From: an uncultured Acidobacterium sp.
GTDB lineage: Bacteria; Acidobacteriota; Vicinamibacteria; Vicinamibacterales; UBA2999
DNA: 61,624 nucleotides
Assembly: GCA_964350785.1 (NCBI GenBank)
Contig: CAYGMD010000003.1
Coordinates: 1-61,624, forward strand
Reading direction: 5' to 3'
Positions 6,004-33,647 of the stretch are shown here, piece by piece. Made by a program: the position numbers and the translations under genes. Position 1 is the first letter of the stretch, and every line of letters begins with the position of its first letter. The notes under the pieces are model-generated. The model did not search any database. It was not told the origin of the DNA and saw only the letters and a list, made by a program, of their open reading frames with translations.

Positions 6004-6019
6004 TGTGAGTCACCTCACT
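6004..6019. promoter_or_regulatory. CRP/FNR-type box TGTGA-gtcacc-TCACT
   Basis: One mismatch to the CRP consensus; upstream of the GH63 start, which has TAACGT 6 nt before its GTG. Confidence 0.55.
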
Positions 6020-6599
6020 TCAACGGCAGATGAGGTGCGGGGGCGTCGCGCGGATGCGGGGGCATCCCGTCTTCGAGGTCCACGCCGAGCCCGTCGGCCA
6101 CACGGTTGATGTAGTTGAAATAGCTGACGATCTGCACCGCATCCGAGACGGCGCGGTCATCAAAACCCTCAGCTCGAAGCGCCACGACATCGTCCTGGAT
6201 CATGGCTGCCGGCTCGGCGGTCAGCTTGACGGCGAAGGCGAGCAGCGCGCGGTCGGCGGGCCCCAGCGGTGCCTTCGTCCAGTCCGTTTTCACCTGCTCC
6301 ACCAGCTCCGGGTCGTCGACCTCGGCACGGAGGTCGTCGGCATGCGCCTCGGTTCAATAGTGGCAGCCGTTGGTCCGCGAGACGACCACGGCCAGCATCT
6401 CTCGCTGCGCCCTGGTGAGGGGCGACCGCCCGCGCATCAGGGCGGCGTAGAGCGCCGTCGAGTGCTTCATCGCCGGCGGGTTGAGGCTCTTGATTCGAAT
6501 GATCTGCCACACCTTGCCCGCGCGGGCCAGCGCGGCGTCGTACTCGGCTCGCAACAACCCGGTGGCTTCGGCCACCGGCTTCAGATCGATCCAGGCCAT
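6015..6599 (-). CDS. AhpD/CMD-family selenoprotein (CxxU), Sec at UGA 6354-6356
   Basis: ORFs 6354..6599 and 6015..6302 are in frame: NGCHY-TGA-TEAHADD. The UGA sits at the second Cys of the AhpD CxxC; downstream hairpin present. Confidence 0.88.
6317..6336 (-). other. Putative bacterial SECIS hairpin
   Basis: CGACCUC-CGUGCC-GAGGUCG, 7-bp stem; loop starts 24 nt after the UGA. Confidence 0.7.
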
Positions 6600-6788
6600 C
6601 TCGCTTCTCCTTCCTTAGCATGACACCGATGCTGAATCCTCATCGGCTCTTGGTGGGTGTCCTGCTCGCCGCGGAGCCATGTGGCGTGTGGGCCTGGTCG
6701 CGCGGCCCGCTGCGGTGACGATCACCGCCGAGGCTGGGCCGTTTCTTGACCAGGCCGTTGTGTCGCGCTGATATCGCGACGGATACGC

Positions 6789-6804
6789 TGTGAGCGGGCT
6801 CACA
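6789..6804. promoter_or_regulatory. Perfect CRP-type box TGTGA-gcgggc-TCACA
   Basis: In the divergent intergenic region between the AhpD selenoprotein and the TVP38 gene. Confidence 0.7.
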
Positions 6805-6979
6805 GATCCACGCCCCCGGCACACGGTCTCCGCCGCTGGCCAACAAGCGTGTGCCATGCTGGCGCCATGCCTGACGTAACACTGGCGTGCGATACACCGA
6901 TCGCTTCGGCACGAGCTGCCGCGTCCCGCATGGAACCAGCAGCGGAGTTCACCGCCGATGGTCAGGTGACCGGTCGGTG

Positions 6980-7681
6980 ATGGTGACCGGAACACTCAAG
7001 GCCGGGATGATCGCGGCTGGCGTTGCCGCGGCGGCCTTCCTCGTCTGGCAGCTGCCCGTCGCGCCCTGGATTGTTGCCTTGGCCGACCGGCTGCGGGAAA
7101 TGGGCTGGCTTGGCATCGCGCTATTCATCGCGATCTATGTCGTGGCCGAGGTGGCCCTTCTGCCGGGCTCGCTCTTCACGCTGGCGGCCGGATTCGCTTA
7201 CGGCCCCGTAGGTGGCCTGCTCGTGGCGTCGCCGGCCAGCGTCCTGGCCGCCACGGTGGCCTTCCTGCTGGGTCGCACGGTGCTGCGGGACTGGATCCGC
7301 GCACGGATTCATCGCTACCCGAAGGCCCAGGCGCTCGATACAGCGATCGGCACCAACAGCTTCAAGTTGATCCTGCTGCTCCGCCTGTCGCCCGTCATTC
7401 CGTTCAACATCCTGAACTACGCCCTCGGCCTGTCGGACGCCAAGGTCGGGCGCTATGTCGTGGCCTCGTTTGTCGGCATGCTGCCAGGCACCTGGTTGTA
7501 CGTGTATCTCGGATCGCTCGCCACGACGGCCGCCCAGCTCACTGAAGCCGGCCAGACCGGCTCACCGCAGACACTGATCCTGACGGGCGTGGGTCTGGTG
7601 TCCACCGTGCTCGTCGTCGTGCTCGTGACTCGCGCGGCGCAGCGGGCGCTGGACGAACAACTGGCCGCGACCAGACGCTGA
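6980..7681 (+). CDS. TVP38/TMEM64 (VTT/SNARE-assoc, DedA superfamily) membrane protein
   Basis: LPGSLFTLAAGFAYG, LLRLSPVIPFNILNY motifs; start could also be 7007. Confidence 0.9.
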   Translation: MVTGTLKAGMIAAGVAAAAFLVWQLPVAPWIVALADRLREMGWLGIALFIAIYVVAEVALLPGSLFTLAAGFAYGPVGGLLVASPASVLAATVAFLLGRTVLRDWIRARIHRYPKAQALDTAIGTNSFKLILLLRLSPVIPFNILNYALGLSDAKVGRYVVASFVGMLPGTWLYVYLGSLATTAAQLTEAGQTGSPQTLILTGVGLVSTVLVVVLVTRAAQRALDEQLAATRR

Positions 7682-7686
7682 ATGCC

Positions 7687-9210
7687 TTACCGCGTCCATC
7701 GAAAATACCGCTCGAACCACCGCTTCACCGACGGCGTCAGCAATCCTCTCCGGTAGGCGTCGCCGGCCTTCTTCAGCGCCTCGGCCTGCGTCGGGTACGG
7801 ATGGATCGTCGCCGCCAGATCACCCAGCGAGCCACCGTGCGTCACGACATACGAGGCCTCCCCAATCAGGTCTCCCGCATGCGCCGCGACGATGGTGCAA
7901 CCGAGAAGCCGTCCGCCCACGTGATGCAAGCGCACAAACCCCTCCGCCTCTTCGTCGAGCACCGCGCGATCGACCTCGGCCAGTTCAATCGTGATCGTCT
8001 TGACGTCATGGCCCTTCTGGCGGGCCTCGGCTTCATACATCCCGACGTGCGCGATTTCCGGATCGGTATACGTACACCACGGCACGACCAGCGCGCTCGC
8101 CCGCTTGCGCCCGTAGAACAGCGCATTCTGAATGACGATGCGCGCCATGGCGTCGGCGGCGTGAGTGAACTTGTACTTGGAACACACATCGCCGGCGGCG
8201 TAGATGCGCCGGTTCGAGGTCTGCATGCGGTCGTTCACCACGACGCCGGCCTTGGTGACGGCCACGCCGGCCGCGTCGAGGCCGAGTCCTTCGATGTTCG
8301 GCGCGCGGCCCGCCGCCACGAGTATCTGGTCACCACCCGCCGCTCCCGACCCGGCGCCGTCGCGGCGCTCGTACCGGATCCGCACACCGGCCGCATCGCT
8401 CGTGGCCTCGACCAGCTGGACACCGAGCTCCAGCCGCACGCCGTCCTCGAGGAGTTGGCGCTGCACGATCGCCGCCGCATCGGCGTCCTCGTTGGGAAGC
8501 ACGTGCGGTGGGCGACCGAGCAGCGTGACCTCGCTGCCGAATCGCGCGAAGGCCTGCGCCAGCTCGCAGCCAATGGGTCCCGCGCCGACCACGATGAGCC
8601 GCGGCGGCAGTTCGGTGAGCCAGAACACGGTCTCGTTAGTGAGGAACGGAATGCCGTCGAGGCCGGGTACCGGCGGGGCGATCGGGCGGCCGCCGGTGGC
8701 GACGACCGCACGGTTGAACTTCAACGTGCGGCCGGCCACTTCGAGGGTGCGCGCGCTCGTGAACGCGCCGCTGCCCAGGAAGACGTCCACCCCGGCGCGC
8801 TGCAAGCGCTGCACCGAGTCGTTGACGCTGATACCGGCGCGGCGCTCACGCATTCGGCGCATGATGGCGGGGAAGTCGGCCTCGACCGGCCCAATGCGGA
8901 CGCCGATCCTGGAAGCCCGGCGCGCCTCGGCGATGGCGCGCGCCGACCGGATGAGCGCTTTCGACGGCACACAACCGACGTTGAGGCAGTCACCGCCAAG
9001 CAAGCCCCGCTCGACAAGCGCCACGCACGCGCCGAGGCCGGCGGCGCCGACGGCACTGACCAGGCCAGCAGTTCCGCCGCCGACGACGACGAGGTCGTAG
9101 ACATCTCGCGGCTCAGGATTCTCCCAATCCGATGGATGAACCGCCTGGAGCAGCGCCTGGTTGGCCGCGTCGAGCGGCCGCACCAGTGGATGGGGCGTGG
9201 TCGTCGTCAT
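7687..9210 (-). CDS. Mercuric-reductase-like pyridine nucleotide-disulfide oxidoreductase
   Basis: GGGTAG, GGDCLNVGCVPSK, GAGPIGCE, IHPYPT; no HMA domain and no C-terminal Cys-Cys. Confidence 0.88.
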   Translation of the reverse strand: MTTTTPHPLVRPLDAANQALLQAVHPSDWENPEPRDVYDLVVVGGGTAGLVSAVGAAGLGACVALVERGLLGGDCLNVGCVPSKALIRSARAIAEARRASRIGVRIGPVEADFPAIMRRMRERRAGISVNDSVQRLQRAGVDVFLGSGAFTSARTLEVAGRTLKFNRAVVATGGRPIAPPVPGLDGIPFLTNETVFWLTELPPRLIVVGAGPIGCELAQAFARFGSEVTLLGRPPHVLPNEDADAAAIVQRQLLEDGVRLELGVQLVEATSDAAGVRIRYERRDGAGSGAAGGDQILVAAGRAPNIEGLGLDAAGVAVTKAGVVVNDRMQTSNRRIYAAGDVCSKYKFTHAADAMARIVIQNALFYGRKRASALVVPWCTYTDPEIAHVGMYEAEARQKGHDVKTITIELAEVDRAVLDEEAEGFVRLHHVGGRLLGCTIVAAHAGDLIGEASYVVTHGGSLGDLAATIHPYPTQAEALKKAGDAYRRGLLTPSVKRWFERYFRWTR

Positions 9211-9284
9211 GCGTTCCTCAGACCATGTACGCGGTGGTGTCTTGAGGCTTCGCGGTGAAGTGCAGCCCCTGTGCCCGGACGACG

Positions 9285-9457
9285 GGCACCTTCTTCGGAT
9301 CACACCCGCGCAGCGCGCACGTGCCGCCGAACGGCTGCTTGCCGATCATCGCGACGGTCCACCCCGCGCCGCGGCACCGCGACGCGACGCTGCCGGCCGC
9401 GGATCCGGAACCAATCACGATCAGGTCGACGGCGCGAGGCGTCATCACTTGAGGCAT
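9285..9457 (-). pseudogene. N-terminal remnant of a glutathione-reductase-like flavoprotein
   Basis: VDLIVIGSGSAAG...FGGTCALRGCDPKK then loss of homology. Confidence 0.7.
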
Positions 9458-9520
9458 GGAAAGAGCATAGCCCGCAGCGGCCCTCGCGCCGCGACGCGCG
9501 TGCGGGTAACCGTCGCGAAC

Positions 9521-9536
9521 AGTGAGGCGCGTCACA
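9521..9536. promoter_or_regulatory. CRP-type box AGTGA-ggcgcg-TCACA (class II position)
   Basis: Centre 9528.5 is 41.5 nt before ATG 9570; -10-like TATCGT at 9558-9563. Confidence 0.7.
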
Positions 9537-9569: not shown

Positions 9570-10547
9570 ATGGCCCACGTCGTTGAGTTCTTCTACAGCG
9601 AACACTGTATCGGCTGTCCGGAGGCGCGGCAGGTCGTCAGACAACTGGCGGCGGCGAGGCCGGATATCGCGATCGCCGAGTTCGATATCGCGACGCACAT
9701 CGATGAAGCCGGCCGGCATGGCTTGATTGCCACGCCGGCAGTGGTCATCGATGGCGGCCCGGCGCTCTATGGGATTCCTCGGATTTCGGATCTGGCCGCC
9801 CGGTTGGACGGACCGTCGGCTCGGGCTCGCGCGAGTGGTGAACGGCCGCTTATACTGTCGGGGATGGCGGCCCACACCAAGCTTTGGTACCTGCAGCATT
9901 TCCGTTTGCTGGAGGCCCTCACCGACGTCCAGAAGCGCGCCGTCGAGAAGATGACGCGCATGCTGGAAGTCAAGCGCGGCCAGCGCATTTACCTCCCGGG
10001 CGATCCGAGTGACCAGATCTTCCTGCTCAAGACCGGGGTGGTGAAGATTTCGACAGGCGGCGCCGAACAAGATACCATCCTGGCGTTGCTCTATCCGGGC
10101 GACATCTTTGGTGAGCTCGCCATGCTCGACGAGTCGCCGCGCGATCACATCGCCGAGGTCGTGGAAGACACCGTCCTCTGCGCGCTCAATCGAGACATGC
10201 TGCTGCAGATGATCCAGCAGTCGCCTGCGCTCGGCTACCAGATCACCAAGCTCATGGGACTGCGGTTGCGCCGCCTGCGAACGCGGGTCGAGGAACTGCT
10301 GTTCAAGAGCGCGCATGCCCGCATCGCCCACACCCTGCTTGACCTCGCCGCCGACTACGGCGTCAAAGACGATGATGGGGTGCTGATTCCGATTCGCTTG
10401 AACCAGGGCGACCTGGGCAACCTGGTCGGCCTGGCGCGTGAGACGGTGAACATCGTTCTGCAGGACCTGAAGCAGCGAGGCCTCGTCGAGACCAGCCGCC
10501 AGAACATCCGCCTCAAGAGTCCGGAGCTGCTGCGCGCGGTCGTGTAG
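9570..10547 (+). CDS. Thioredoxin-like (CxxC) domain fused in frame to a CRP/FNR regulator
   Basis: FYSEHCIGC...ATPAVVIDG, then from Met 9864 a cNMP-binding domain (FGELAMLDESPR) and HTH (LVGLARETVN). No stop between the two parts. Confidence 0.8.
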   Translation: MAHVVEFFYSEHCIGCPEARQVVRQLAAARPDIAIAEFDIATHIDEAGRHGLIATPAVVIDGGPALYGIPRISDLAARLDGPSARARASGERPLILSGMAAHTKLWYLQHFRLLEALTDVQKRAVEKMTRMLEVKRGQRIYLPGDPSDQIFLLKTGVVKISTGGAEQDTILALLYPGDIFGELAMLDESPRDHIAEVVEDTVLCALNRDMLLQMIQQSPALGYQITKLMGLRLRRLRTRVEELLFKSAHARIAHTLLDLAADYGVKDDDGVLIPIRLNQGDLGNLVGLARETVNIVLQDLKQRGLVETSRQNIRLKSPELLRAVV

Positions 10548-10620: not shown

Positions 10621-10654
10621 GTGGAAAGACGGCAGGGCGCCAACAGGCGATGAT

Positions 10655-11236
10655 GTGAAGGACCTCACATTCTGTTGCCGCCACGCCGACCTGCTGGCGA
10701 TTCAACAAGCCGCCAAGGGTGCCGCGACGCTGACCGGTAATCTGCTGGGCGTCGCGCGCCGGTACAGCGCCGGTGCAACCTACGCCAGCGTGACCGACGT
10801 GCTCAGCGCACCGTTGGACAACCTCGCGCGCGAGTTCGCCAGGCACCACATCACCGTCGAAACCGACTTCAAACCGGCGCCGGCGCCGAACGTCGACCTC
10901 AACTTGCTCTCCCAGGTGTGCCTGAATCTCTATCTCAACGCGCGGGACGCCATGATTCCGAAGGGCGGCGGCACGCTTCGCGTGTCGCTGCGTGGCACGG
11001 CTGACGGCATCGAGTTCACGGTGACCGACACCGGCACGGGCATTCCGGAAGCGTTTCGCTCGCGTATCTTCCAGCCCCTGCAATCCACCAAGGGCGATCG
11101 CGGCACCGGGCTCGGGCTCTCGGTCTCGAAGTCGGTCATTGAATCGATGGGGGGACGCATTCGATACGAGTCGGTCGAGGGCCTGGGCACATCATTCTTT
11201 GTCACGCTGCCGACGGACCCGCCGGGGCGGGCGTAA
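10655..11236 (+). pseudogene. Histidine kinase C-terminal (HATPase_c) fragment
   Basis: N box LNLYLNARDAM, G1 VTDTGTGI, G2 GTGLGLS; no H-box or sensor domain. Confidence 0.7.
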
Positions 11237-11414: not shown

Positions 11415-12980
11415 TCACGCGCTCGGGTCCCGCCAGGCACGACTGTCGCGCTCCAGCAGCGCGTCGGCCTGCGTCGGCCCCCAACTGCCCGCCTGATACT
11501 CGCGGACGGGGGCGCCGCCCGCCTGCCACGACGCCAGCATCGGCGCCACCAGTTCCCATCCAGCCTCGACGATATCGGCGCGGTGGAACAGCGTGGCGTC
11601 ACCAATCATGCAGTCGTACAACAGCGTTTCGTAACCGGTGCTCGGCGACTCGCCGAAGTGGTCGGCGTAGCAGAAGTCCATCTTCACGGCGCCCAGTTGC
11701 ACGCGCGGGCCGGGCACCTTGGCCTCGAACTGCAACGAGATGCCCTCGCGTGGCTGGATGCGCAGCACCAGCCAGTTCGGCTGCACGCATTCGGCCGGGG
11801 TGTCGCGGAACAGCGCCAGGGGCGGCTGCTTGAACTGGATCGCGATTTCCGTCACTCGCGACGGCAACCGCTTCCCCGTCCGCAGGTAGAACGGCACCTC
11901 GGCCCAGCGCCAGTTATCAATAAGCACCTTCAACCCGACGTAGGTTTCGGTGTCGGACAGGAGCGCCACCTTGGGCTCCGATCGATACGCCGGGACGGCA
12001 TGGCCGCCGAGCGTTCCCGCGGTGTACTGGCCACGCACCACGTCGCGTGTCACCGCATCCTCGGTGAACGGGCGGACCGCCTGAAGCACTTTGAGCCGCT
12101 CGTTGCGGACCGGCTCGGCCAGGAACGACGCCGGCGGCTCCATCGTGGTGACCGCGAGCAGTTGGAACAAGTGGTTCTGCAGCATGTCGCGCACGGCACC
12201 CGCCGTGTCGTAATAACCGCCGCGCTGCTCGACACCAACCGCTTCGGCGACGCAGATCTGCACGTGATCGACATAGCGCCGGTTCCAGATCGGCTCGAAA
12301 ATGCCGTTACCGAACCGGAGCGCCATGATGTTCTGGACGGTCTCTTTTCCCAGGTAGTGGTCGATGCGATAGATCTGGTGCTCGTGCACGACGCCGAGCA
12401 TTTGGCGGTTGAGGGCGCGCGCCGAGTCGAGGTCCCGCCCGAAGGGCTTTTCGACGATGACACGACGCCAGGCACCGGCGGCTTCATGGGCGAGCCCGGC
12501 GGCACCGAGTTGGTCGACGATCGGCCCGAACAGGTTCGGCGGTGTGGCAAGGTAGAAGACGGCGTTGAGCGAGCCACCCTCACTGCCCGCCAGTCGCCGA
12601 GCGATCTCCCGGTACGTGGCCTGGTCGTCGAAGCCGCCCGACACGTACGCGGCGCGCGCCAGTAACCAGTCGACGTCCCCGGCATCGACCGGCGGCGCCG
12701 CGAACTCAACTAAGTCACGGACAAGCTTTTTGTGATACTCGGGATCGGTCTGCGCGTCGCGTCCGACGCCGATCAGGGTGAACCGGTCGCCCAGCAGGCC
12801 GCTGCCGCGCAGGTTATACAAGGCCGGCACCAGCTTGCGCATGGCCAGATCGCCACTGGCGCCGAAGATGACGACCGCGCAGGGATCGGCCGGCGGCGCC
12901 GGGGCCTGCGTCCGTTCGGCGCACCCGGCCGTGACGCCCGGCTCCCCCGTGGATTTGAGCTTCATCGTCGTTGGCGCCAT
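11415..12980 (-). CDS. zwf: Glucose-6-phosphate 1-dehydrogenase
   Basis: GASGDLA, RIDHYLGKE, RWAEVPFYLRTGK. Confidence 0.95.
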   Translation of the reverse strand: MAPTTMKLKSTGEPGVTAGCAERTQAPAPPADPCAVVIFGASGDLAMRKLVPALYNLRGSGLLGDRFTLIGVGRDAQTDPEYHKKLVRDLVEFAAPPVDAGDVDWLLARAAYVSGGFDDQATYREIARRLAGSEGGSLNAVFYLATPPNLFGPIVDQLGAAGLAHEAAGAWRRVIVEKPFGRDLDSARALNRQMLGVVHEHQIYRIDHYLGKETVQNIMALRFGNGIFEPIWNRRYVDHVQICVAEAVGVEQRGGYYDTAGAVRDMLQNHLFQLLAVTTMEPPASFLAEPVRNERLKVLQAVRPFTEDAVTRDVVRGQYTAGTLGGHAVPAYRSEPKVALLSDTETYVGLKVLIDNWRWAEVPFYLRTGKRLPSRVTEIAIQFKQPPLALFRDTPAECVQPNWLVLRIQPREGISLQFEAKVPGPRVQLGAVKMDFCYADHFGESPSTGYETLLYDCMIGDATLFHRADIVEAGWELVAPMLASWQAGGAPVREYQAGSWGPTQADALLERDSRAWRDPSA

Positions 12981-12985
12981 GCCAC

Positions 12986-13966
12986 CTAACCTCCAGACGG
13001 ACGCTCGACGTGACCGCCGAACTTGAAGCGCATGGCCGACAGTACTTTCTCGCCGAAGGTATGCTCCTGGCGCGAGCGGAATCTGGCGAACAGCGCCGAC
13101 GCCAAGACCTCGACCGGCACCGCCTCGGCGATTGCCGCTTCGATCGTCCAACGTCCCTCGCCGGAATCCTGCACAAAGCCCGTGTACTGCGATAGCTTCG
13201 GGTCTTCGGCGAGCGCCATGGCCGTGAGGTCAAGCAGCCAGGATCCGACCACGCTCCCATGTCGCCAGACCTCGGCGATCTCCGCCAAATCGAACTCGTA
13301 GCGCTGCCCGGCTGGCAACTGGTCGCCGCCGGCGTTACGAAGAATGTCGAAGCCCTCGGCGTAAGCCTGCATCAGTCCGTATTCGATGCCGTTGTGCACC
13401 ATCTTGACGAAGTGCCCGGCGCCGGCGGGTCCGCAGTACAGGTAGCCGCGCTCCGCAGTGCCGCCGGCCGGCCGGCCCGGCGTCGGTGACACGCCGTCGT
13501 GTCCGGGTGCGAGTGTGGCGAAGATCGGATCGAGCCGACCCACCACGTCTCGTGGGCCACCCACCATCAGGCTGTAGCCACGGTCGATCCCCCACAGCCC
13601 GCCGCTCGTGCCGACGTCGAGGTAGTGAACGCCGCTGGACTTCAGCGCCTCCGCGCGGCGAACGTCGTCTTTGAAATTTGAATTGCCACCGTCGATCACG
13701 ACATCACCGGGGCTGAGCAACGCCGAGACGGCCGACACCATCTGCTCGGTCGCCTCGCCGGCCGGCACCATGAGCCACACCGCACGTGGCGGCGTCAGGG
13801 CCTGCACCAGCGCTTCGAGCGAGGCCGACGGGGTGGCGCCTTCGCCGGCCAGTTCCTGCATGCGCTCGGCGCTCAAGTCGAACACCGCCGCCGCGTGCCC
13901 GCCGCGCATCAACCGGCGCACCATGTTGGCGCCCATCCGTCCGAGACCAATCATTCCAATTTGCAT
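12986..13966 (-). CDS. gnd: 6-phosphogluconate dehydrogenase (decarboxylating, short type)
   Basis: [40 protein letters not shown]. Confidence 0.95.
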
Positions 13967-14000
13967 CATTTCCTCATGGCGGAGACCACGCACCGCGTGT

Positions 14001-15071: not shown

Positions 15072-15087
15072 TGTGACCAGCATCACA
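15072..15087. promoter_or_regulatory. Perfect CRP-type box TGTGA-ccagca-TCACA
   Basis: Between divergent pagL and ECF sigma 1. Confidence 0.7.
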
Positions 15088-15125
15088 CACGCCGCCCGAT
15101 GAATCGCCGAGAATGTCCCTTGATT

Positions 15126-15773
15126 ATGTCCACGTACTCCGACCCGGGCGGCGGCAGGGCGTCCTCGGACGACCTGGCAACCGTCCAGCAGTTGTTGGCG
15201 GGGGACGAAGCTACGTTCACAGCCGTGGTGGAGCGCCTCCACCCCTCCCTCATCAGGTTCGCCCTCCTCTTTGTGGCGAGTCGGGAAGTCGCCGAGGAAG
15301 TCGTGCAGGACACCTGGGTCGCGGTGCTGAACGGCTTGTCCTCGTTCCAGGGCCGCTCGGCGCTCAAGAGCTGGATCTTCAGCATCGCCGCGAACCGGGC
15401 GAAGACCCGCGCCATCCGCGAGAGGCGAACCATCACGTTCTCGGAGCTGTCGGCACCCGGGGACGATGAACCCGCGGTCGATCCGGATCGGTTCTCGAGC
15501 GGCGGCGCGTGGTCGGCGCCACCGGGCCGATGGGATCGCGACACGCCGGAGAAACTCCTGCTCCGTCAGGAGGCGCTCGCCGTGGTGGCCGCCGCCATCG
15601 CGGAATTGCCACCCAGCCAGCAGGCGGTCGTCACCCTCCGCGATGTCGAGGGGCTCGACGCGGCGGAAGTCTGTAACGTTCTCGAGATTTCGGATACCAA
15701 TCAGCGGGTTCTGCTGCACCGGGGCCGATCGAAAGTACGATCGGCACTCGAGCGGTATACGCTGGAAGGGTAG
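15126..15773 (+). CDS. ECF sigma factor (ECF-1)
   Basis: Region 2 EEVVQDTW...FQGRSALKSWIFSIAAN; region 4 NQRVLLHRGR. Confidence 0.9.
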   Translation: MSTYSDPGGGRASSDDLATVQQLLAGDEATFTAVVERLHPSLIRFALLFVASREVAEEVVQDTWVAVLNGLSSFQGRSALKSWIFSIAANRAKTRAIRERRTITFSELSAPGDDEPAVDPDRFSSGGAWSAPPGRWDRDTPEKLLLRQEALAVVAAAIAELPPSQQAVVTLRDVEGLDAAEVCNVLEISDTNQRVLLHRGRSKVRSALERYTLEG

Positions 15774-15775
15774 AC

Positions 15776-16006
15776 ATGCTCACGTGTCAGGAAGTAACCG
15801 AGGTCGTCACGGACTATCTGGAGGGGCGCCAGTCGCTGATGCAGCGGCTGCGCTTTCAGATGCACCTGGGCATGTGCCGGCACTGCCGCGCGTACCTGAA
15901 GCAGATGAAGACGACCGTTGACACCATCGGTCGCCTCCCCAACGAGTCGATCCCTCCCGAAATGAGCAAGGAAGTGCTCGATCGCTTCCGCGCGTGGAAG
16001 CGGTAG
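15776..16006 (+). CDS. Soluble zf-HC2 anti-sigma factor
   Basis: HLGMCRHC (HxxxCxxC), 76 aa, no TM segment. Confidence 0.88.
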   Translation: MLTCQEVTEVVTDYLEGRQSLMQRLRFQMHLGMCRHCRAYLKQMKTTVDTIGRLPNESIPPEMSKEVLDRFRAWKR

Positions 16007-16017
16007 ACCGACCGTGC

Positions 16018-17100
16018 CTACTGGCCGGGCGCGCGTTCGCGGTCCAGCGCCTTCAGGCTTACCGTCCACGTCAGCGGCACCGTCTGCGGGTTGAAACACA
16101 CCTTGTCGTCGCACGCCTGGTAGTTCAGGATCCCCTCGATGGTGACGCTGGTGGCGCCCTTGAGCGCGGCCTGGCCGGCGGCCGACGAGTCGATCATCAC
16201 GTCCTGCACAATACGGAACGGCTTCTGGTACACCTGCACGTGTTCATCCAGCGGCTTGAAGTGGTAGTCCTCTGATTTGGGGTACTGAGCGGCCCGGACG
16301 ACGAGGCCCGGCTTGGCTTTGACCGTCAAGACGATCGGCTTGTAACCGGTAACGCCGGGCGCATAGACATGCACTCGCGGCGCGGGAGTGATGTCCAGCA
16401 CGATGGAGAAGTGGGTGCCGGGCGCCGCCGCCTGGTCGGTCGTGTACGAGGTGATCTCGACATTCGGTGATGACACCTTGGTCGCCGGCACATTCACCTT
16501 GCTGCCCATCCGAACGAGCACGCTCGACATCGTATTGCGCTCCTGGTAGCCGTCTTCGAAGAAGCGGGACGTCACCACGCCCCGGCGGTCAACGATGAAC
16601 ATGCCGGGAAACGGATATCCGAACAGGTTGTTCGACGGATCCACCGCCGTATTGAGGAGCCCGTACCGCTTGATGACGGCCGAGCCGGCATCTGACAACA
16701 GGGGAAACGTGATCTGCCGGCGTGCCGCGAACTCGGCGAGTACGGGAACCGGGTCGTAGGTGATCACGGCCAACTCGTAGCCGTTCTGCCTCACGTCGGC
16801 CAGCCGTCCCTGCATTTCGACGAGTTGCGTCTTGCAATAGGGACACCAGGACGCGGACCTCGAGAAGGTCAGCATGAGGCCCTTGGGGCCCATCAAGGAT
16901 TCCAGGGTGCGGGCACGCCCCGTCTGGTCCCGGAGGGAGAACGCCGGCAGCTTGTCACCGACCTGCGGGCCGAGCTTTCGCACGTCCGGCGCGGACGCAG
17001 CGGCGGCCGATTGCTCGGCGACCAGCGGTGACGAGACGGCGCCGGAGGCGATCACGCCACCGATCAAACACACACAGAAAGCGCACAGGCGAGCGAGCAT
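16018..17100 (-). CDS. Exported redoxin (AhpC/TSA-like, CxxC) + DsbD N-terminal-like domain; Cys paralog
   Basis: Signal peptide, SWCPYCKTQL, C-terminal YQACDDKVCF. Confidence 0.85.
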   Translation of the reverse strand: MLARLCAFCVCLIGGVIASGAVSSPLVAEQSAAAASAPDVRKLGPQVGDKLPAFSLRDQTGRARTLESLMGPKGLMLTFSRSASWCPYCKTQLVEMQGRLADVRQNGYELAVITYDPVPVLAEFAARRQITFPLLSDAGSAVIKRYGLLNTAVDPSNNLFGYPFPGMFIVDRRGVVTSRFFEDGYQERNTMSSVLVRMGSKVNVPATKVSSPNVEITSYTTDQAAAPGTHFSIVLDITPAPRVHVYAPGVTGYKPIVLTVKAKPGLVVRAAQYPKSEDYHFKPLDEHVQVYQKPFRIVQDVMIDSSAAGQAALKGATSVTIEGILNYQACDDKVCFNPQTVPLTWTVSLKALDRERAPGQ

Positions 17101-17148
17101 CGAATTCTCCTTCGGGTATCAGACTCGGTTTGGTGCCGGGAGACTGGA

Positions 17149-17748: not shown

Positions 17749-17769
17749 GCGAATCCCCTCGGGTGGACG

Positions 17770-19061: not shown

Positions 19062-19087
19062 GTCACGCCCGGGGTCGTTGTGTTACG
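19062..19087 (-). promoter_or_regulatory. ECF-type promoter CGTAAC-N14-CGTGAC upstream of ECF-2
   Basis: Likely autoregulatory promoter. Confidence 0.65.
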
Positions 19088-19094
19088 GATCACA
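19079..19094. promoter_or_regulatory. CRP-type box TGTGT-tacgga-TCACA overlapping the ECF -35
   Basis: One mismatch to consensus; covers 19082-19087. Confidence 0.6.
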
Positions 19095-23624: not shown

Positions 23625-24853
23625 TGCGACCGTACCTGATGACACTGATCACCGGCCTATCGGTGGCGGTCGCGGCGGCCTGCCACAGCGTCGGCCCGCG
23701 CCCGCCGGCGGCGGCCGAGCTGCTGGCCGGCAACTGGGCGGAGATCGAGCAGCAGGCGCGGGGGACAACCGTGTCGTTCGCGATGTGGGCCGGCGAGGAT
23801 GCCCGCAACCGGTTCTACCAGGGACCGGTGACGCAGACGCTGCGCGAGCGTTTCGGCATCGAGCTGCGCATCGTGCCTTTGACCGCGGTGCCTGACGTGA
23901 TCAACCGGCTGCTCAACGAGGAGCGGGCCGGGCGGGATCGGGCAGGAGCCATCGACCTGGCGTGGATCAACGGCGAGAACTTCCGCACCGCACGCCAAGG
24001 TGACCTGCTGTGGGGGCCATTCGCCGACTCGCTGCCCAATATCGTGCACTTCGATGAACAGGCGCGGCGGCGGGACTTCGGCACGCCCACCGACGGATTC
24101 GAAGCCCCGGTCGAATCGGCGCAGTTCGTGTTCGCGTACGACTCGGCCAGGTTGGCCGAGCCACCCCGGACGCTGGCGGCCCTGCGCGAGTGGATCGAAG
24201 CCCATCCCGGGCGCTTCACCTATCCGGCCCTCCCGGACTTCACGGGATCAGCGTTTGTCCGTCACGTGCTGTATCACGCTGGCGGCGAGCCGCCAGCGGC
24301 GTTCGCGGATGGATTTGACGAACAGCGCTACGCCCGTGCCTCGGCACGGGCCATCGCGTGGCTGCGGGACATCAAGCCATTCCTCTGGCGGAAGGGCGAA
24401 ACCTTTCCGGCCACAACGGCCGATCTCGATCGTTTGTTTGCGAACGGTGAGGTCGATTTCTCCATGAGCTACCGGCCCACTTTCGCCGCGGAGAAGATCC
24501 GCCGGGGCGAATTTCCGGCCTCGACGCGCACCTCGGGTTTCGAGGAGGGCACGATCTTCAACTACAGCTTTCTGGCTGTGCCCTTCAACGCCGCGAATCC
24601 GGCCGGGGCCCTGACCGTGATCAACTACTTCCTGTCGCCAGAACATGCGCTGGCGCGGATTCGGATGCTGGGCGGCCTGTTCCCGCAACGCCTCGACAAC
24701 GTCGCCGCCGAGATCAGGGCCGCGGTCGACTCGCTGACGAGCGACCCGGCCACGCTGCCGCTCGAGTGGCTCGCCGGCCATCGCATTGCCGAAGGGGACG
24801 CCGAGTATCTCATTCGCTTTGAGAAAGACTGGCAGCGGAGCGTCTTGCGATGA
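23624..24853 (+). CDS. ynjB: YnjB-like ABC substrate-binding lipoprotein
   Basis: Lipobox AAAC; IDLAWINGENFRT and FTYPALPDFTGSAF resemble E. coli YnjB as recalled. Confidence 0.75.
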   Translation: MRPYLMTLITGLSVAVAAACHSVGPRPPAAAELLAGNWAEIEQQARGTTVSFAMWAGEDARNRFYQGPVTQTLRERFGIELRIVPLTAVPDVINRLLNEERAGRDRAGAIDLAWINGENFRTARQGDLLWGPFADSLPNIVHFDEQARRRDFGTPTDGFEAPVESAQFVFAYDSARLAEPPRTLAALREWIEAHPGRFTYPALPDFTGSAFVRHVLYHAGGEPPAAFADGFDEQRYARASARAIAWLRDIKPFLWRKGETFPATTADLDRLFANGEVDFSMSYRPTFAAEKIRRGEFPASTRTSGFEEGTIFNYSFLAVPFNAANPAGALTVINYFLSPEHALARIRMLGGLFPQRLDNVAAEIRAAVDSLTSDPATLPLEWLAGHRIAEGDAEYLIRFEKDWQRSVLR

Positions 24854-25839
24854 CTCCGGCGCTCCACCTCGAGCAGATCGCGGCAGGCTACGGGCCACGC
24901 CGAGTGCTCCACGACTTCAACCTCGAAGTCGCCGCCGGTACCCTGACGGTACTGCTGGGACCGTCTGGATGCGGCAAGACCACCGTGCTGAACGTGGTGG
25001 CCGGGCTGTTGCCGGTGACGGGCGGCCGGGTCTTGCTGAACCAGAAGCCGCTCACCGAAGTCCCCGCCGAGCGGCGGGGCATCGGCGTCGTCTTTCAGAA
25101 GCCGTCGCTGTTTCCACACCTGACCGTCGCCGACAACGTCGCGTTCGGGCTCGCGATGCGTGGCGTCGCGCCGGCCAGGCGCCGCGCCGCGGCAGACGAA
25201 GCGCTGCGGCTGGTGCAGCTCGACGGCTTTGGCGATCGCACGCCAACGGCCCTGTCCGGCGGCCAGGAGCAGCGCGTGGCGCTGGCGCGGGCACTCGTGC
25301 TGGAACCGCGCGTGCTCCTGCTCGACGAGCCCCTGTCGGCCCTCGACGAAGGCTTGCGGGGAGAAATGCGGGCATTGCTGCGCAATCTGCAACGCCGGCT
25401 CGGCGTCACCACTCTCTTTGTTACCCACGACCAGCGCGAGGCAGTCGACATTGCCGACCAGGTGGCGGTGATGCTTGACGGCTCGATTGCGCAGGCCGGC
25501 CCACCGCGGCTGTTTTACACCGACCCTGCCACTGAACAGGTCGCGCGATTCTTCGGATGGGCGCTGCTCACCGGGTCGGGTGGTGGCACTGCGTTTCACC
25601 CTTCATCCGCCCGGCTCTGTTCCGGGCAGGACGACCACGGCGCCGACGCCGTAGCCGTCGAGGTGGTCGTCGAGCGAGTCCTCGACCTCGGCGCACAGAT
25701 TCGGGCCGTCGTGAGACTGCCCACCGGAGAGTCGATCGAGATCACCCAGGCGCCGGGCTCCGAGCTGGCACTCGAGTCCGCCTCAGGCACGGCAGCCGCA
25801 CGCCTCTTCGTCCCGAAGTCCGGCCTCCGCACCTTCTGA
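24850..25839 (+). CDS. ABC ATP-binding subunit
   Basis: GPSGCGKT, LSGGQEQR, LLLDEP. Confidence 0.92.
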   Translation: MTPALHLEQIAAGYGPRRVLHDFNLEVAAGTLTVLLGPSGCGKTTVLNVVAGLLPVTGGRVLLNQKPLTEVPAERRGIGVVFQKPSLFPHLTVADNVAFGLAMRGVAPARRRAAADEALRLVQLDGFGDRTPTALSGGQEQRVALARALVLEPRVLLLDEPLSALDEGLRGEMRALLRNLQRRLGVTTLFVTHDQREAVDIADQVAVMLDGSIAQAGPPRLFYTDPATEQVARFFGWALLTGSGGGTAFHPSSARLCSGQDDHGADAVAVEVVVERVLDLGAQIRAVVRLPTGESIEITQAPGSELALESASGTAAARLFVPKSGLRTF

Positions 25840-25873: not shown

Positions 25874-25938
25874 TCAACTCCAGTTGGCCGGCGGTCAGGA
25901 TGAACCTGGCCGCGCCGGGCCATCAGGCTGGAGCCTCC

Positions 25939-26205
25939 ATGAATCCTCGTTTCGTTATCGCCTCGGCGTTCGCCGCGGCCATCGCCGTCCCCGCCCTGCT
26001 CTCGGCCCAGAAGCCCGCCGAGATGCCCACCTTCAAGGCGGAAAAGTGCTACGGCATCGCCAAGGCCGGCGCCAACGACTGCGCGTCGACCGGCAACAAC
26101 TCGTGCGGCGGCACCTCCAAGCGCGCCAGCGACAGCAAGGCCTGGATGTTCGTGGCCGAGGGCACCTGCGACCGCATCGTCGGCGGCAGCAAGACCGCGA
26201 AGTAA
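25939..26205 (+). CDS. bufA1: DUF2282 bufferin-type precursor, copy 1
   Basis: Signal peptide + EKCYGIAKAGANDCA...SC...C, four Cys, 88 aa. Confidence 0.85.
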   Translation: MNPRFVIASAFAAAIAVPALLSAQKPAEMPTFKAEKCYGIAKAGANDCASTGNNSCGGTSKRASDSKAWMFVAEGTCDRIVGGSKTAK

Positions 26206-26217
26206 GCACGGGACCAA

Positions 26218-26577
26218 GTGGCCATCACCATGTCGTCGACTCATCGCGCTCCGGTCCGGGCCGGCGTCGGCCCGAGATTGCCGCACATCGAAGAGGTGGT
26301 GGCCACTCGGCTGCCCTATGACCGGGAGACGCTCGACACGGTGACGCGACACCTGCGCGAGGTCCAGGACGGCCTGGGTCGGCCATACCTGCTGGAGAAC
26401 CCATCCAGCTACGTCGGCTTCGCGGGCTCGACCATGACGGAAACGGAATTCCTGAACGAGCTGGTCGACCGCACCGGCTGCCAAGTGGCGATGCCCGTGT
26501 GGGGCAGCGACGCCCGTCGTTCGCTCATGGTTTCTCCGTCACAGATCCAGGGTGAGGTCAGTCGAATGGGCGCGTGA
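26218..26577 (+). pseudogene. DUF692 (MNIO) maturase remnant
   Basis: Versus the intact copy at 39930 it has an 86-codon in-frame deletion (ATR/LPYDRET) and loses homology after DRTGC. Confidence 0.9.
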
Positions 26578-28445: not shown

Positions 28446-28823
28446 TTAGAAGTTCAGGACGCGGTAGCCGGCGTCCAGGTACTTGGACAGATCGATGATT
28501 CCGGAGGTGCCCGGAATCGCCTTTTCGTGAATCAGGTTTGCACCGGCATTCCTGGCGTCCTGCGTCGCACCGAACACGTCGGCGCAACCACCGCACACGC
28601 CGACCACGCTGTCCTTGACCGCGTTGTAGAGCGCGTGCGCCGGGTGTTCGGGCTTCACCAGCTCGCTGGCCCAACGCACGCCGGTGCCCTGGAAGATCAG
28701 CGCCACGTCCTGCTTCTTCTCGAGCAGTTCGTAGGCCACGAACATGCCGTTGAACAGCCGGCCGAGCGCTTCTTCACTGCCGGACTTCGGATCGGAATAG
28801 ATGACAATTGCGGTCTTCGACAT
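28446..28823 (-). CDS. DsrE-family protein
   Basis: LIFQGTGV and VCGGCADVFG. Confidence 0.75.
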   Translation of the reverse strand: MSKTAIVIYSDPKSGSEEALGRLFNGMFVAYELLEKKQDVALIFQGTGVRWASELVKPEHPAHALYNAVKDSVVGVCGGCADVFGATQDARNAGANLIHEKAIPGTSGIIDLSKYLDAGYRVLNF

Positions 28824-28900
28824 CAGTCACTCCTGAAAATTGTGGTCTGCAAATGGCCGATTAAGTCGTGTACGAGCGCGGCGTGGCCCTGCGCCGCGCG

Positions 28901-29374
28901 TCAGAGGTTGAGATCCGACAACGAGGGATGCCCCTCGGGCCGCGGGCCGGCCGGCCACCGGAACAGCCGGTCGGCCTCGAGAATCGGCCGCTCGTTGATG
29001 CTGGCCAGGCGGCGCCGCATCAGCCCGGCGGTGTCGAACTCCCAGTTCTCGTTGCCGTACGACCGGAACCAGTTCCCGCTGTCGTCGCGCCACTCGTAGG
29101 CGAAGCGAACGGCGATCCGATCGGCGCCGAACGTCCACAGCTCCTTGACAAGCCGGTAGTCCAGTTCGCGCGCCCACTTCCGCCGCAGAAACGCGACGAT
29201 GGCGGGGCGACCGGCAAGGAACTCGACCCGGTTGCGCCAGATCGAGTCCGGCGTGTAGGCGAGCGACACGCGCTCCGGATCGCGGCTGTTCCAGCCGTCC
29301 TCCGCCATCCGCACCTTCTGCGTGGCGGTCTCAGGGGAAAACGGCGGTGCAGGTGGACGAATCGGTAAAGACAT
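28901..29374 (-). CDS. DUF1348 / NTF2-like protein
   Basis: [36 protein letters not shown]. Confidence 0.9.
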
Positions 29375-29404
29375 GGGCACAGTCCTCTCGTTGACCGGGC
29401 GTTC

Positions 29405-30208
29405 CTACTTGAGCGACGACAGGACCTTCACGGCGCTCGCCGTGCTCCAGATGTCGCTGGCAATGAGCCGGAAGTTGACGTAGGCGGCCTCGTAGCCGTC
29501 GAAGCCCGGAAGTTTCGCGGCGGCCGTCGCGTCGGTGACGACGACGACCTCGAAGCCCTGCTCGAGCAGCTCGCGCATGTGCGACTCGGTGCAGAGATTG
29601 GCCGACATGCCGGCCAGCACGACCTGGCCGATTCCGGCCTTTCGAAGCTGCAGCACCAGATCGTTGGTCTCGGGTCCGAACACCTTGTGCGGGCTGGAGA
29701 CGACGGTCGTGCCGTCGTTCAGGTACGGCTTGTAGCGATCCAACCAGTCGGCGCCTGATCCCTCGAACGCTTCCTGCGTGAGCGCGCCCTTGCGGTCGAA
29801 CATGCCGATGTTGTGCATCAGCACCTCGAGCGCGCCCGCGAACTTCCAGCGATGGTCGTGCGCGAAGTAATAGTGCGGGCTCACGAACACCGGCACATCC
29901 GCGGTCTTCGCGGCCTTGAGCAGCCGCTCGATGTTCTCGACCGTGCCGTTCTCCTTCACGCTCTCGCCGACGACGCCCCAGGCGACGCCCTTCGGGCTGA
30001 GGAAATCGTTCTGCGGATCGGTGACGAGCAAGCCGACGCGGCCCTTGATGGGGGTCATGCCGGGACGCGGCACCGGCGCGTCGGCTCGCGGACCACTGAA
30101 GTGCGGCAGGGTGGGTGTCGCGCGCTGAGCGACGAGGTGGGGCGCCACGGCCAGGGCCGAAGCGCCGACAATCAGGGCGATAACTGACAAGCGGATGATA
30201 CGGGTCAC
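29405..30208 (-). CDS. Isochorismatase-family cysteine hydrolase with signal peptide
   Basis: TDPQNDF, SPHK, GMSANLC catalytic triad. Confidence 0.88.
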   Translation of the reverse strand: MTRIIRLSVIALIVGASALAVAPHLVAQRATPTLPHFSGPRADAPVPRPGMTPIKGRVGLLVTDPQNDFLSPKGVAWGVVGESVKENGTVENIERLLKAAKTADVPVFVSPHYYFAHDHRWKFAGALEVLMHNIGMFDRKGALTQEAFEGSGADWLDRYKPYLNDGTTVVSSPHKVFGPETNDLVLQLRKAGIGQVVLAGMSANLCTESHMRELLEQGFEVVVVTDATAAAKLPGFDGYEAAYVNFRLIASDIWSTASAVKVLSSLK

Positions 30209-30284
30209 GGTGGTCTCCTTCGACCGATGAGCAAACACGGTTCCTTAGGACGAATCGTCCTGACTCGTCCCCGCCGACCGATAT

Positions 30285-30301
30285 ATCAAGTTGCCTGCCA
30301 A
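30285..30301 (-). promoter_or_regulatory. sigma54-type promoter TTGGCAGGCAACTTGAT
   Basis: GG-N10-GA variant of -24/-12; faces the hydrolase operon, next to a bEBP gene. Confidence 0.55.
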
Positions 30302-30340
30302 CTTGTGACCTGACGTGTAAGTTACTGTTTCAATTGATGT

Positions 30341-30356
30341 TGTGACAGATTTCAGA
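30341..30356. promoter_or_regulatory. CRP-type box TGTGA-cagatt-TCAGA
   Basis: One mismatch; divergent AT-rich intergenic region. Confidence 0.5.
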
Positions 30357-30462
30357 CATTATCCGGTAACGACCAAATATCGTCGCCTACCATTTTTCGT
30401 TGCACATAATAGTTGTTTTTCGTAGTCTACCAGCGGTGAACACGCTTCAGTTACCTGGTGTC

Positions 30463-32016
<1,554 letters not shown>

Positions 32017-32403: not shown

Positions 32404-33198
32404 TCAGTGATGCGCCGGCCGTTGCGCTGATCGCTTCCATAGGGCGATCCCTCCGAGCAGGCCGGCAGCGTTGTCGACCACGCGCACGCGGCGGCCCAGG
32501 TGGAAATCGATGCGCGCGGCGTTGCCCCCACCCAGATAGAGCCGGTCGAAGTTGAAAACGGTCTCGAGAATGCCAATGACGCGACGCACGCGCCGGCGCC
32601 ACTTGCGAGTGCCCAGCCGCTTACGCGCCGCATCGCCGAGGTACTGATCGTAGGTCTTGCGGCCGCGGACCGGGTGCTGTGACAGTTCCAGATGCGGCAA
32701 CAGCGCGCCGTCCTGAAACTGCGCGCTGCCCACGCCGGTTCCCAGCGTGATGACCAGCTCGAAACCTTGACCCGCGATCACCGCAAGCCCCTGGACCTCG
32801 GCGTCGTTGACCACCCGAACCGGCCGCTTGAGAATCTCCTCCAGCGCGCGTGCGAGATCGAATCCGCGCCAGGTCCGACTGGCGAAGTTCGGTGCGGTGC
32901 GTACGACACCATCTCGAACCACGCCTGGAAAGCCTGCCGAGATCCGATCATACTCGGCCAGGGGCGCGACCAAGTCGCGGATTGCGCGTACCACGGTCGA
33001 TGGCGGCCGGCCGGCGGGTGTTGGCGTACGCACGCGGTCGCCTATGGGCTTGCCGCGAGCATCGAGGACCACGGCCTTCAGTCCCGTTCCGCCGATGTCG
33101 ATCGTCAGCGTCAGAGGGCCGGCGCGTCTACGACGCTGTTGCCTCGCACGGGCGGCTGCAGGGGGCTTGGTTGAAATGACAGGCTCCTTCGGCGTCAT
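32404..33198 (-). CDS. ROK-family kinase (polyphosphate glucokinase-like)
   Basis: DIGGTGLK, VNDAEVQG, LGTGVGS, LGGGNA. Confidence 0.85.
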   Translation of the reverse strand: MTPKEPVISTKPPAAARARQQRRRRAGPLTLTIDIGGTGLKAVVLDARGKPIGDRVRTPTPAGRPPSTVVRAIRDLVAPLAEYDRISAGFPGVVRDGVVRTAPNFASRTWRGFDLARALEEILKRPVRVVNDAEVQGLAVIAGQGFELVITLGTGVGSAQFQDGALLPHLELSQHPVRGRKTYDQYLGDAARKRLGTRKWRRRVRRVIGILETVFNFDRLYLGGGNAARIDFHLGRRVRVVDNAAGLLGGIALWKRSAQRPAHH

Positions 33199-33244
33199 AT
33201 GGCTTAGGTTAGTCGCCGTCGTGAGTTGTCTGTTACCGCCGACC

Positions 33245-33260
33245 GGTGATCCACATCACA
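33245..33260. promoter_or_regulatory. CRP-type box GGTGA-tccaca-TCACA
   Basis: Upstream of the ROK gene, which has TAACCT 7 nt before its ATG. Confidence 0.55.
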
Positions 33261-33344
33261 CATCCCGCACATCGCTCGTCTCGTTCCACCAAACCGGGCA
33301 CACACGTTGGACATCACGCGGGCACGTTCAACTCTGGCGGAATC

Positions 33345-33520
33345 TGATGCACCCGCATATTGGTCGGTCGATGTTAATGGTTAAACCCGGCCTGCGGATG
33401 GTGAGGGTCAAGCAGGCATTTGGAGTCTTGATTCTCGGCACAGCGCTCTACTACGGCTATGTGGCGTATGAGTTGTTCGCCAATCGCTGGGTGGACGCCT
33501 CCTCGGCGGCGACGCGCGAA
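33345..33520 (+). pseudogene. DsbD/CcdA transmembrane-domain remnant
   Basis: KPGLRMVRVKQAFGVLILGTALYYGY resembles the DsbD PxPGxWMxxxKxxxG segment. Confidence 0.55.
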
Positions 33521-33631
33521 CCGGGCGAGTTGTCCAGCTCAATCGCCGTACCATCACATCTCTATGATGCAAAGGGGCTACAGAACAGAGCACCCCTGGC
33601 CATTTGGTGGCGGGACCCCTTGTGCGAAGGC

Positions 33632-33647
33632 TGTGAGCGGAGTCACA
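33632..33647. promoter_or_regulatory. Perfect CRP-type box TGTGA-gcggag-TCACA (class II position)
   Basis: Centre 33639.5; TATGAT at 33670-33675; GTG 33680 / ATG 33683. Confidence 0.75.

Follow-up and report, generated by a model that had tools for sequence, protein, structure and literature searches.

A cluster of CRP-type palindromes and a thioredoxin-linked CRP/FNR-family regulator in an uncultured acidobacterium: a candidate regulon of thiol/selenol defense

Contig CAYGMD010000003.1 (GenBank assembly GCA_964350785.1), from an uncultured Acidobacterium sp. of the order Vicinamibacterales, encodes a CRP/FNR-family regulator linked to a thioredoxin (Trx)-like domain and carries a cluster of short palindromes that resemble CRP operators. 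The window analyzed here is this whole contig of 61,624 nucleotides (C3), which represents 1.2% of a 5.08-Mb, 375-contig assembly with 67% GC. Palindromes were counted as boxes if they matched the 16-bp pattern TGTGA-N6-TCACA either perfectly or with one mismatch, and the genes around them were labeled by Pfam profile matches combined with frame analysis. Some of the boxes are spaced as in class II CRP promoters, which have the operator centered near position -41.5 from the transcript start. The regulator gene and the ten boxes found in the window are as follows.

9570 to 10547, plus strand: Trx-like domain (CIGC) and CRP/FNR-family regulator in a single 325-aa frame.
1579 to 1594: box with one mismatch (TGTGGTCCAACTCACA), upstream of a minus-strand PD40/WD40 gene.
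6004 to 6019: box with one mismatch, its center 52 nt upstream of the GH63/MGH1-like start (5959, minus strand), overlapping the stop codon of a CMD gene.
6789 to 6804: perfect box between an AhpD-like/CMD selenoprotein candidate (minus strand) and a DedA/VTT gene (plus strand, start 90 nt away).
9521 to 9536: box with one mismatch between the pyridine nucleotide-disulfide oxidoreductase gene and the Trx-CRP frame, followed by 21 nt, TATCGT, 6 nt, and the ATG at 9570; predicted to be autoregulatory, with class II spacing.
10654 to 10669: perfect box, 107 nt past the stop codon of crp; it lies on the 5' edge of a histidine kinase fragment that consists of HATPase_c only.
15072 to 15087: perfect box between a PagL-like gene (minus strand), after which the genes for 6-phosphogluconate dehydrogenase (6PGD) and glucose-6-phosphate dehydrogenase (G6PD) come on the same strand, and a pair of genes for an extracytoplasmic function (ECF) sigma factor and a zf-HC2 anti-sigma factor (plus strand).
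19079 to 19094: box with one mismatch between an ECF sigma factor operon (minus strand) and a DUF3179 selenoprotein candidate (plus strand).
30341 to 30356: box with one mismatch between an isochorismatase-DUF1348-DsrE operon (minus strand) and a GAF-containing sigma54 activator gene (plus strand); on the plus side, it is followed by TATCGT with class II spacing.
33245 to 33260: box with one mismatch, its center 54 nt upstream of the start of a minus-strand ROK gene.
33632 to 33647: perfect box, followed by 22 nt, TATGAT, 7 nt, and the ATG at 33683 of a Prx-like/DsbD_N selenoprotein candidate; class II spacing.

The number of boxes in the window by far exceeds the expectation derived from 100 shuffles. 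Four are perfect (6789, 10654, 15072, and 33632) against an expected 0.03, and with the six one-mismatch boxes (1579, 6004, 9521, 19079, 30341, and 33245) the total is ten against an expected 1.11; none of the 100 shuffles reached either count. The first-pass annotation of this DNA, made from the sequence alone, had listed eight boxes (6004, 6789, 9521, 15072, 19079, 30341, 33245, and 33632), and all of them were recovered on rescanning, each in the same mismatch class. It had missed the perfect box at 10654 and the one-mismatch box at 1579, the latter outside the range that it described. Its own rough estimate of chance occurrence was about 0.01 perfect sites per window. The scan of the full window found no box with up to one mismatch beyond position 33647, hence none between 45 and 59 kb, where none had been noticed before.

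In the genome as a whole, the same scan returned 7 perfect boxes and 33 with up to one mismatch. The window holds 10 of these 33, a 25-fold local density. As many as 20 of the 33 fall into the ~15% of the genome that is non-coding (the mask used here, a crude, GC3-based one built from open reading frames [ORFs], leaves ~85% as coding), which amounts to a 4-fold intergenic bias. The boxes at 9521 and 10654 were scored as coding only through ORFs extended to their maximum length. This genome-wide scan, which had been suggested along with the original list, found that boxes are not equally frequent in coding DNA and supports their description as CRP-type operators in intergenic or remnant DNA. 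When every 5-mer inverted dyad with a spacer of 2 to 8 nt was counted, without preselection, in the window and in the rest of the genome, TGTGA-N6 showed the strongest excess in the window (p = 1.4e-7; next best dyad, p = 6.7e-4). The 176-bp neighborhoods of the ten boxes have in common only chance matches of 9 to 11 nt and nothing beyond the palindrome. Because of this, the boxes are regarded as independent short palindromes rather than copies of an element, and an origin from a mobile element or repeat is rejected. To call the boxes confined to this region, as had been done, is too strong, since three perfect and about ten near-perfect intergenic boxes lie on other contigs. Four of the off-contig boxes (C68:7967, C77:15649, C260:2566, and C104:11342, where C numbers denote contigs of this genome) have AT-rich spacers of the TGTGAAAnnTTTCACA type, and two of these are found 67 bp upstream of nuoA (C77:15649) and 103 bp upstream of the gene for an ActA-like pentahaem cytochrome (C260:2566). 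Judging from their spacers, these sites may form a separate operator class that belongs to another factor.

The regulator itself has the two domains of the CRP/FNR superfamily. Its N-terminal beta-roll domain of the cyclic nucleotide-binding type (PF00027) is recognized with an E value of 3.5e-19 and 69 bits (cut-off, 27.5), and the C-terminal helix-turn-helix with E values of 7.7e-17 for HTH_Crp_2 (PF13545) and 3.8e-7 for Crp (PF00325); it also exceeded the cut-off when the whole genome was scanned. The closest solved relatives of the CRP part are Mycobacterium tuberculosis CRP (E value of 4e-29, helix RETVNK) and Corynebacterium glutamicum GlxR; for the thioredoxin-fold part, the nearest solved structures are the small archaeal thioredoxins 1FO5 and 1NHO. 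A shorter, CRP-only form of 227 aa can be read from the ATG at 9864, which follows a conserved TATACT-N7 element. Across 34 family members, the residues G83-E84, P92-R93, H95, C106, and R192-E193-T194-V195-N196 are invariant and D94 is nearly so, which makes the pocket motif GE...PRDH. The phosphate-binding cassette of this family thus has R-D-H, versus R-T-S in M. tuberculosis CRP, and departs from the pattern G-E...R-[ST]. Most homologs are 227 to 228 aa long; at least eight independent sequences of 328 to 352 aa carry a fused Trx-like domain with CxxC or CxxS. In the relatives compared here, L numbers denote loci and G numbers denote genomes; in L001, whose protein is 85% identical, trx and crp are in the same frame with a single TAG codon between them. 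The genome encodes five HTH_Crp_2 proteins, including the one in the window, which alone has the RETVN recognition helix; in the other four, the corresponding helices read IETAIR, SRPTVT, and, twice, TRSRVN.

The window also contains an orphan thioredoxin_3/DUF1223-like ORF of 140 aa (2750 to 3172, plus strand), located beside a C-terminal fragment of a major facilitator superfamily gene (1937 to 2737, minus strand). This ORF may have arisen as a displaced copy of trx, the partner gene of crp.

The box in front of the regulator operon is conserved, and so is the arrangement of the promoter that follows it. In L001, L002/3/4, L030, L031, L032, and G036, a perfect box directly precedes trx or the trx-crp fusion; together with the window, this places a box before the regulator's own operon in seven lineages. 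In the relatives, the order is box, 21 to 22 nt, a -10-like hexamer, 6 to 7 nt, and the ATG or GTG of trx. The hexamer is TATCGT in the window and L001, TATGCT in L030 and L032, and TATGTT, TACGCT, or TAGGCT elsewhere; it takes the form TAnnnT in five of the six related loci and TAGGCT in G036. The layout of the elements is kept, and the sequence between them differs. Likewise, TATACT-N7-ATG precedes crp in five loci with differing surroundings: in the window (9851 to 9866, within the fused reading frame), in L001 (9988 to 10003), and in L030, L031, and L032 (just before 10001). In the window, TAnnnT begins 30 to 31 nt from the box center at 9521, 30341, and 33632. The class II distance previously noted for 9521 and 33632 therefore holds, and the same spacing is found at 30341. 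The number of boxes also follows the regulator: the mean number of perfect boxes is 4.0 in 10 genomes that encode an ortholog versus 1.3 in 14 that do not (Mann-Whitney p = 6e-4, or 1e-3 without the genome of the window), and a reversed-pattern control gave 0 to 1 sites.

Boxes recur at other, matching positions in these relatives as well. They are found between the operon for a 514-aa disulfide reductase and a radical-SAM methyltransferase and the VKOR/FA_hydroxylase genes (L030:4370, L031:5380, and L032:2939), beside a GRDB-like gene (L030:11433 and L032:11768), and beside AhpC and VTT genes (L001:2556). The crp gene has split DUF3179 genes and disulfide reductase genes as its neighbors in the relatives and, in L001, also a whole oxidative pentose phosphate operon. 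In G012, G013, and G030, genes were called by a crude ORF caller, and the neighbors of perfect boxes (a 1-Cys peroxiredoxin, NuoI, a DUF3179 fragment, and an XRE-like ORF) were too unclean to be used as a case of regulon conservation. An ABC transporter (SBP_bac_8, two permease domains, and ATPase) accompanies trx-crp in the window (21931 to 25839), in L003 (1 to 2867), and in L018 of G036 (C1, 13578 to 18264). The transporter loci in G036 and L003 also hold a gene for a CDP-alcohol phosphatidyltransferase, and the start of the ABC binding-protein gene of G036 is overlapped by a one-mismatch box.

Taken with the distribution of the boxes, these features make it likely, at a probability of about 0.78, that the boxes serve as the operators of the CRP/FNR regulator encoded at 9570/9864-10547, which would control genes of thiol/selenol defense and NADPH supply. 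The local regulator is the predicted binder because its RETVN helix is unique among the five paralogs, the box is conserved at its own operon, and box counts track its ortholog. The link that had been drawn between the boxes and the 9570/9864 protein is in this way upheld, with this protein as the most likely binder. The genes next to the boxes are listed below.

3278 to 5959, minus strand: GH63/MGH1-like glycoside hydrolase (Pfam), putative target.
6015 to 6599, minus strand: AhpD-like (CMD) protein, putative target; its NGCHYU motif (CxxU) contains an in-frame TGA.
6887 to 7681, plus strand: DedA/VTT membrane protein, putative target; L001 also has a VTT gene near a box.
7687 to 9445, minus strand: pyridine nucleotide-disulfide oxidoreductase, an intact copy starting near 9210 plus an upstream remnant.
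11415 to 13993, minus strand: 6PGD and G6PD, adjoining crp here and in L001.
15099 to 16006, plus strand: ECF sigma factor and zf-HC2 anti-sigma factor (Pfam).
16018 to 18959, minus strand: ECF sigma factor, zf-HC2 anti-sigma factor, TlpA-like thioredoxin, and AhpC-TSA/DsbD_N protein (a Cys-containing paralog).
19194 to 20216, plus strand: DUF3179 protein, candidate selenoprotein; its W-U-P-L-C motif (UxxC) contains an in-frame TGA.
28446 to 30238, minus strand: isochorismatase-family, DUF1348, and DsrE-like genes (Pfam).
30400 to 32016, plus strand: GAF - AAA+ - HTH_8 sigma54-dependent activator (Pfam).
32404 to 33198, minus strand: ROK-family protein, a sugar kinase or regulator (Pfam).
33683 to 34831, plus strand: Prx-like thiol:disulfide oxidoreductase/DsbD_N protein (AhpC-TSA/DsbD_N in Pfam), secreted; its W-U-P-Y-C motif (UxxC) contains an in-frame TGA.

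The remnant upstream of the oxidoreductase gene (9218 to 9445, minus strand) comprises ~55 N-terminal codons of a second copy (GSGSAAG ... GGTCALRGC) in another frame. The stretch around box 33632 (33347 to 33650) was considered as a remnant of a named gene and rejected; it lies within an ORF (32807 to 33913) that has no Pfam family. Two further features stand apart from the boxes. Behind an ORF for a DUF2282 protein (bufferin-type precursor) comes a 119-aa fragment of the MbnB/TglH/ChrH family (25900 to 26577, plus strand), which covers profile positions 106 to 166 of 263 and looks like a truncated maturase of ribosomally synthesized and post-translationally modified peptides. Genes for tRNA-Ser(CGA) and tRNA-Arg(ACG) are found at 44242 to 44330 and 59226 to 59302.

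Four genes of the window contain an in-frame TGA exactly at the position of a redox motif, with coding signal on both sides: the two CMD genes (NGCHYU), the DUF3179 gene (WUPLC), and the Prx-like gene (WUPYC). The second of the AhpD-like/CMD genes (20229 to 20771, minus strand) has no box with up to two mismatches in its upstream gap. AhpD-like proteins (CxxU), Prx-like thiol:disulfide oxidoreductases (UxxC), and DUF3179 proteins (UxxC/T) are all catalogued as prokaryotic selenoprotein families, and the TGA codons in the window fall exactly at the motif positions given there (PMC9312934, family table). The genome encodes the selenocysteine (Sec) machinery, namely, SelA (E value of 2e-131) and tRNA-Sec, the latter on a contig other than the window. 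Hairpins begin 13 to 20 nt after each UGA; their folding energies are no better than those of shuffled sequence. The DUF3179 orthologs that adjoin crp in L001, L030, and L032 are likewise split into two ORFs, and such split genes near crp in the relatives probably contain Sec.

The proposed circuit can be described as follows. A dimer of the regulator would read TGTGA-N6-TCACA through its RETVN recognition helix. At the promoters of trx-crp, of the gene for the putatively Sec-containing Prx-like protein, and of the sigma54 activator gene, the box would occupy the activator position of class II, and the trx-crp and Prx-like transcripts are predicted to be leaderless, with their 5' ends at the start codon or adjacent to it. 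From the other seven boxes, the regulator could activate from further upstream or repress. TATACT-N7-ATG, which has no box and is located within or directly before the crp reading frame, looks like a second leaderless promoter. It would provide a basal level of the CRP-only regulator; combined with the box-dependent trx(-crp) promoter, this would result in a positive feedback loop. The expected output includes defense proteins (the AhpD-like, DUF3179, and Prx-like selenoprotein candidates, the disulfide reductase, and the TlpA/DsbD_N envelope reductants), control proteins (two pairs of ECF sigma factors and ZAS-type anti-sigma factors), and a route from glucose to NADPH, to which GH63, ROK, G6PD, and 6PGD could all contribute. 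The targets had been described as a mixture of selenoproteins, an ECF sigma factor, a sigma54 module, and sugar enzymes; the list stands, but it fits a single theme, thiol/selenol redox defense with NADPH supply. The description of the region as accessory is only partly borne out. The regulator is patchy, with orthologs in 10 of the 81 genomes of the order and 2 of the 7 genomes of the family, and the region holds gene remnants; on the other hand, the trx-crp core with its DUF3179, disulfide reductase, and pentose phosphate neighbors is syntenic in several lineages.

Other explanations of the boxes have to be weighed against binding by the local regulator. The pattern is short, and a few of the off-contig boxes sit in low-GC stretches, where chance occurrence is likelier, but the assumption that the cluster reflects chance, composition, or short mobile-repeat copies has negligible probability, given that none of the 100 shuffles matched the observed counts, that this dyad came out on top of the unbiased enumeration, and that the boxes combine absence of flank similarity with a 4-fold intergenic bias and positional conservation between genomes. 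The boxes also formally fit TGT-N10-ACA, the NifA site, which is found roughly 80 to 150 bp upstream of a -24/-12 (GG-N10-GC) promoter. They could then serve as upstream activator sequences for the GAF-AAA+-HTH_8 activator (30400 to 32016), whose gene adjoins box 30341, and a weak -24/-12-like site (TGGCAGGCAACTTGA, 30286 to 30300, minus strand) precedes the isochorismatase operon. This explanation is most improbable, as sigma54 promoter-like sites show no enrichment (78 versus an expected 68) and do not accompany the boxes, the gene calls for the related loci that retain boxes include no sigma54 activator, and -10-like hexamers are conserved at class II spacing. The -24/-12-like site is located 48 nt before the start of the isochorismatase operon and is oriented away from the sigma54 activator gene, with the CRP box ~55 nt upstream. 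It is very unlikely, too, that the boxes are bound by another CRP/FNR paralog of the genome while the local regulator has a different operator. Four further HTH_Crp_2 proteins are available for this role, the one on C68 being encoded ~1 kb from the perfect box C68:7967, and AT-rich-spacer boxes recur across the order, also in genomes that lack a Trx-CRP ortholog. However, the R-E pair with which CRP reads TGTGA is missing from all four, seven lineages retain a box directly in front of the local regulator's own operon, and site counts follow the presence of its ortholog.

The signal is a separate matter. In the structures of the Escherichia coli and M. tuberculosis CRPs, the Ser/Thr that follows the cassette Arg contacts the cyclic phosphate; here, this position is held by Asp almost without exception, and the next one is always His (PRDH). 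The altered R-D-H pocket argues against cyclic AMP (cAMP) as the ligand, and cAMP is probably not the signal. Because the pocket motif is altered and one Cys is invariant, the thiol redox state is a plausible candidate for this role: the CxxC thioredoxin-like domain, co-encoded or fused, together with Cys106 could make the regulator respond to the thiol redox state. In its full form, this proposal makes the thioredoxin-fold CxxC domain the sensor, with thiol-disulfide exchange with Cys106 in place of cAMP, and the protein a redox-gated island regulator of a distinct CRP/FNR subfamily that amplifies itself from two leaderless promoters; we offer this version tentatively and consider it possible rather than expected. 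A conventional global regulator of the cAMP-CRP/GlxR type, located in a redox island by coincidence, with a cyclic nucleotide as the signal and trx merely as a co-transcribed target, appears unlikely. It would agree with the cAMP-binding CRPs being the nearest solved relatives and with the invariant Gly-Glu and Arg of the cassette. It would also agree with the reports that the CRP of Deinococcus radiodurans acts in oxidative stress (PMC4868304) and that Mycobacterium smegmatis Crp controls ahpC (PMC4218801). It would leave unexplained the replaced cassette residue and the repeated in-frame Trx fusion in independent lineages, which is unusual for a mere target.

Several observations weigh against the assignment of the boxes to the Trx-linked regulator or against its redox response. 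Class II spacing is seen at only 3 of the 10 boxes (9521, 30341, and 33632), the box at 10654 faces nothing but the kinase fragment, and the third basic residue of the recognition helix (R185 in E. coli, where the R-E pair is R180 and E181) is Ile here. Orthologs with no more than 63% identity (G015, G030, G047, G012, and G011) have no box with up to one mismatch within about 10 to 30 kb of the gene, except for L025:8011 in G011 and L020:6677, a site with one mismatch, in G015; for this reason, the autoregulatory box is claimed for the closer clade only. The neighbors of perfect boxes in G012, G013, and G030 are mixed and poorly resolved, and the wide occurrence of AT-rich-spacer boxes, described above, points in the same direction. 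As for the redox signal, the idea comes down to the linkage and fusion of the two genes, a single invariant Cys, and the altered pocket motif.

Acidobacteriota are abundant but rarely cultured soil bacteria in which the control of transcription is almost unstudied. This locus offers a compact, testable regulator-operator pair, in which a single protein is matched with some ten sites and the promoter layout is conserved. If the regulon is as predicted, one circuit joins selenoprotein expression, envelope thiol reductants, ECF sigma factor cascades, and NADPH supply; if the thioredoxin-like partner is the sensor, it would represent a new type of input for the CRP/FNR family. The conserved -10 hexamers located 6 to 7 nt before start codons point to leaderless transcription in Acidobacteriota.

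A literature search found nothing on Trx-linked CRPs or on CRP regulons in Vicinamibacterales, nor was a shared CRP-type regulator of the known selenoprotein families found to be reported. The closest known systems are M. tuberculosis CRP (Rv3676) and GlxR, which bind the 16-bp operator TGTGA-N6-TCACA. The similarity to these proteins includes the best matches among solved structures (E values of about 1e-28 to 1e-29), the two-domain build, and the RETVN start of the recognition helix, and it extends to the reported control of ahpC by mycobacterial Crp (PMC4218801). In contrast to the R-T-S pocket and the Lys after RETVN in those proteins, the acidobacterial regulator has R-D-H and Ile. It also has a family-specific invariant Cys, and its gene always comes after, or is fused to, the one for a CxxC thioredoxin-like domain; its sites are crowded in one island, whereas theirs are spread genome-wide. 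With the class II promoters of E. coli CRP, the locus shares the palindrome and, at three promoters, a box center ~30 nt before a -10-like hexamer; it differs in the predicted leaderless mRNAs, the doubtful dependence on cAMP, and the absence of R185. Disulfide formation alters the activity of the CRP/FNR regulator FLP of Lactobacillus casei, and the same has been described for CprK of Desulfitobacterium (PMC2610375). The thiol switching proposed here is of the same type. In this pair, two Cys residues lie within the regulator, as opposed to one invariant Cys and a separate or fused CxxC domain here, and the operators differ. Compared with all these systems, the switch is probably of the classical kind, and what would be new is the link to thioredoxin, the probable independence from cAMP, and the selenoprotein-rich set of targets.

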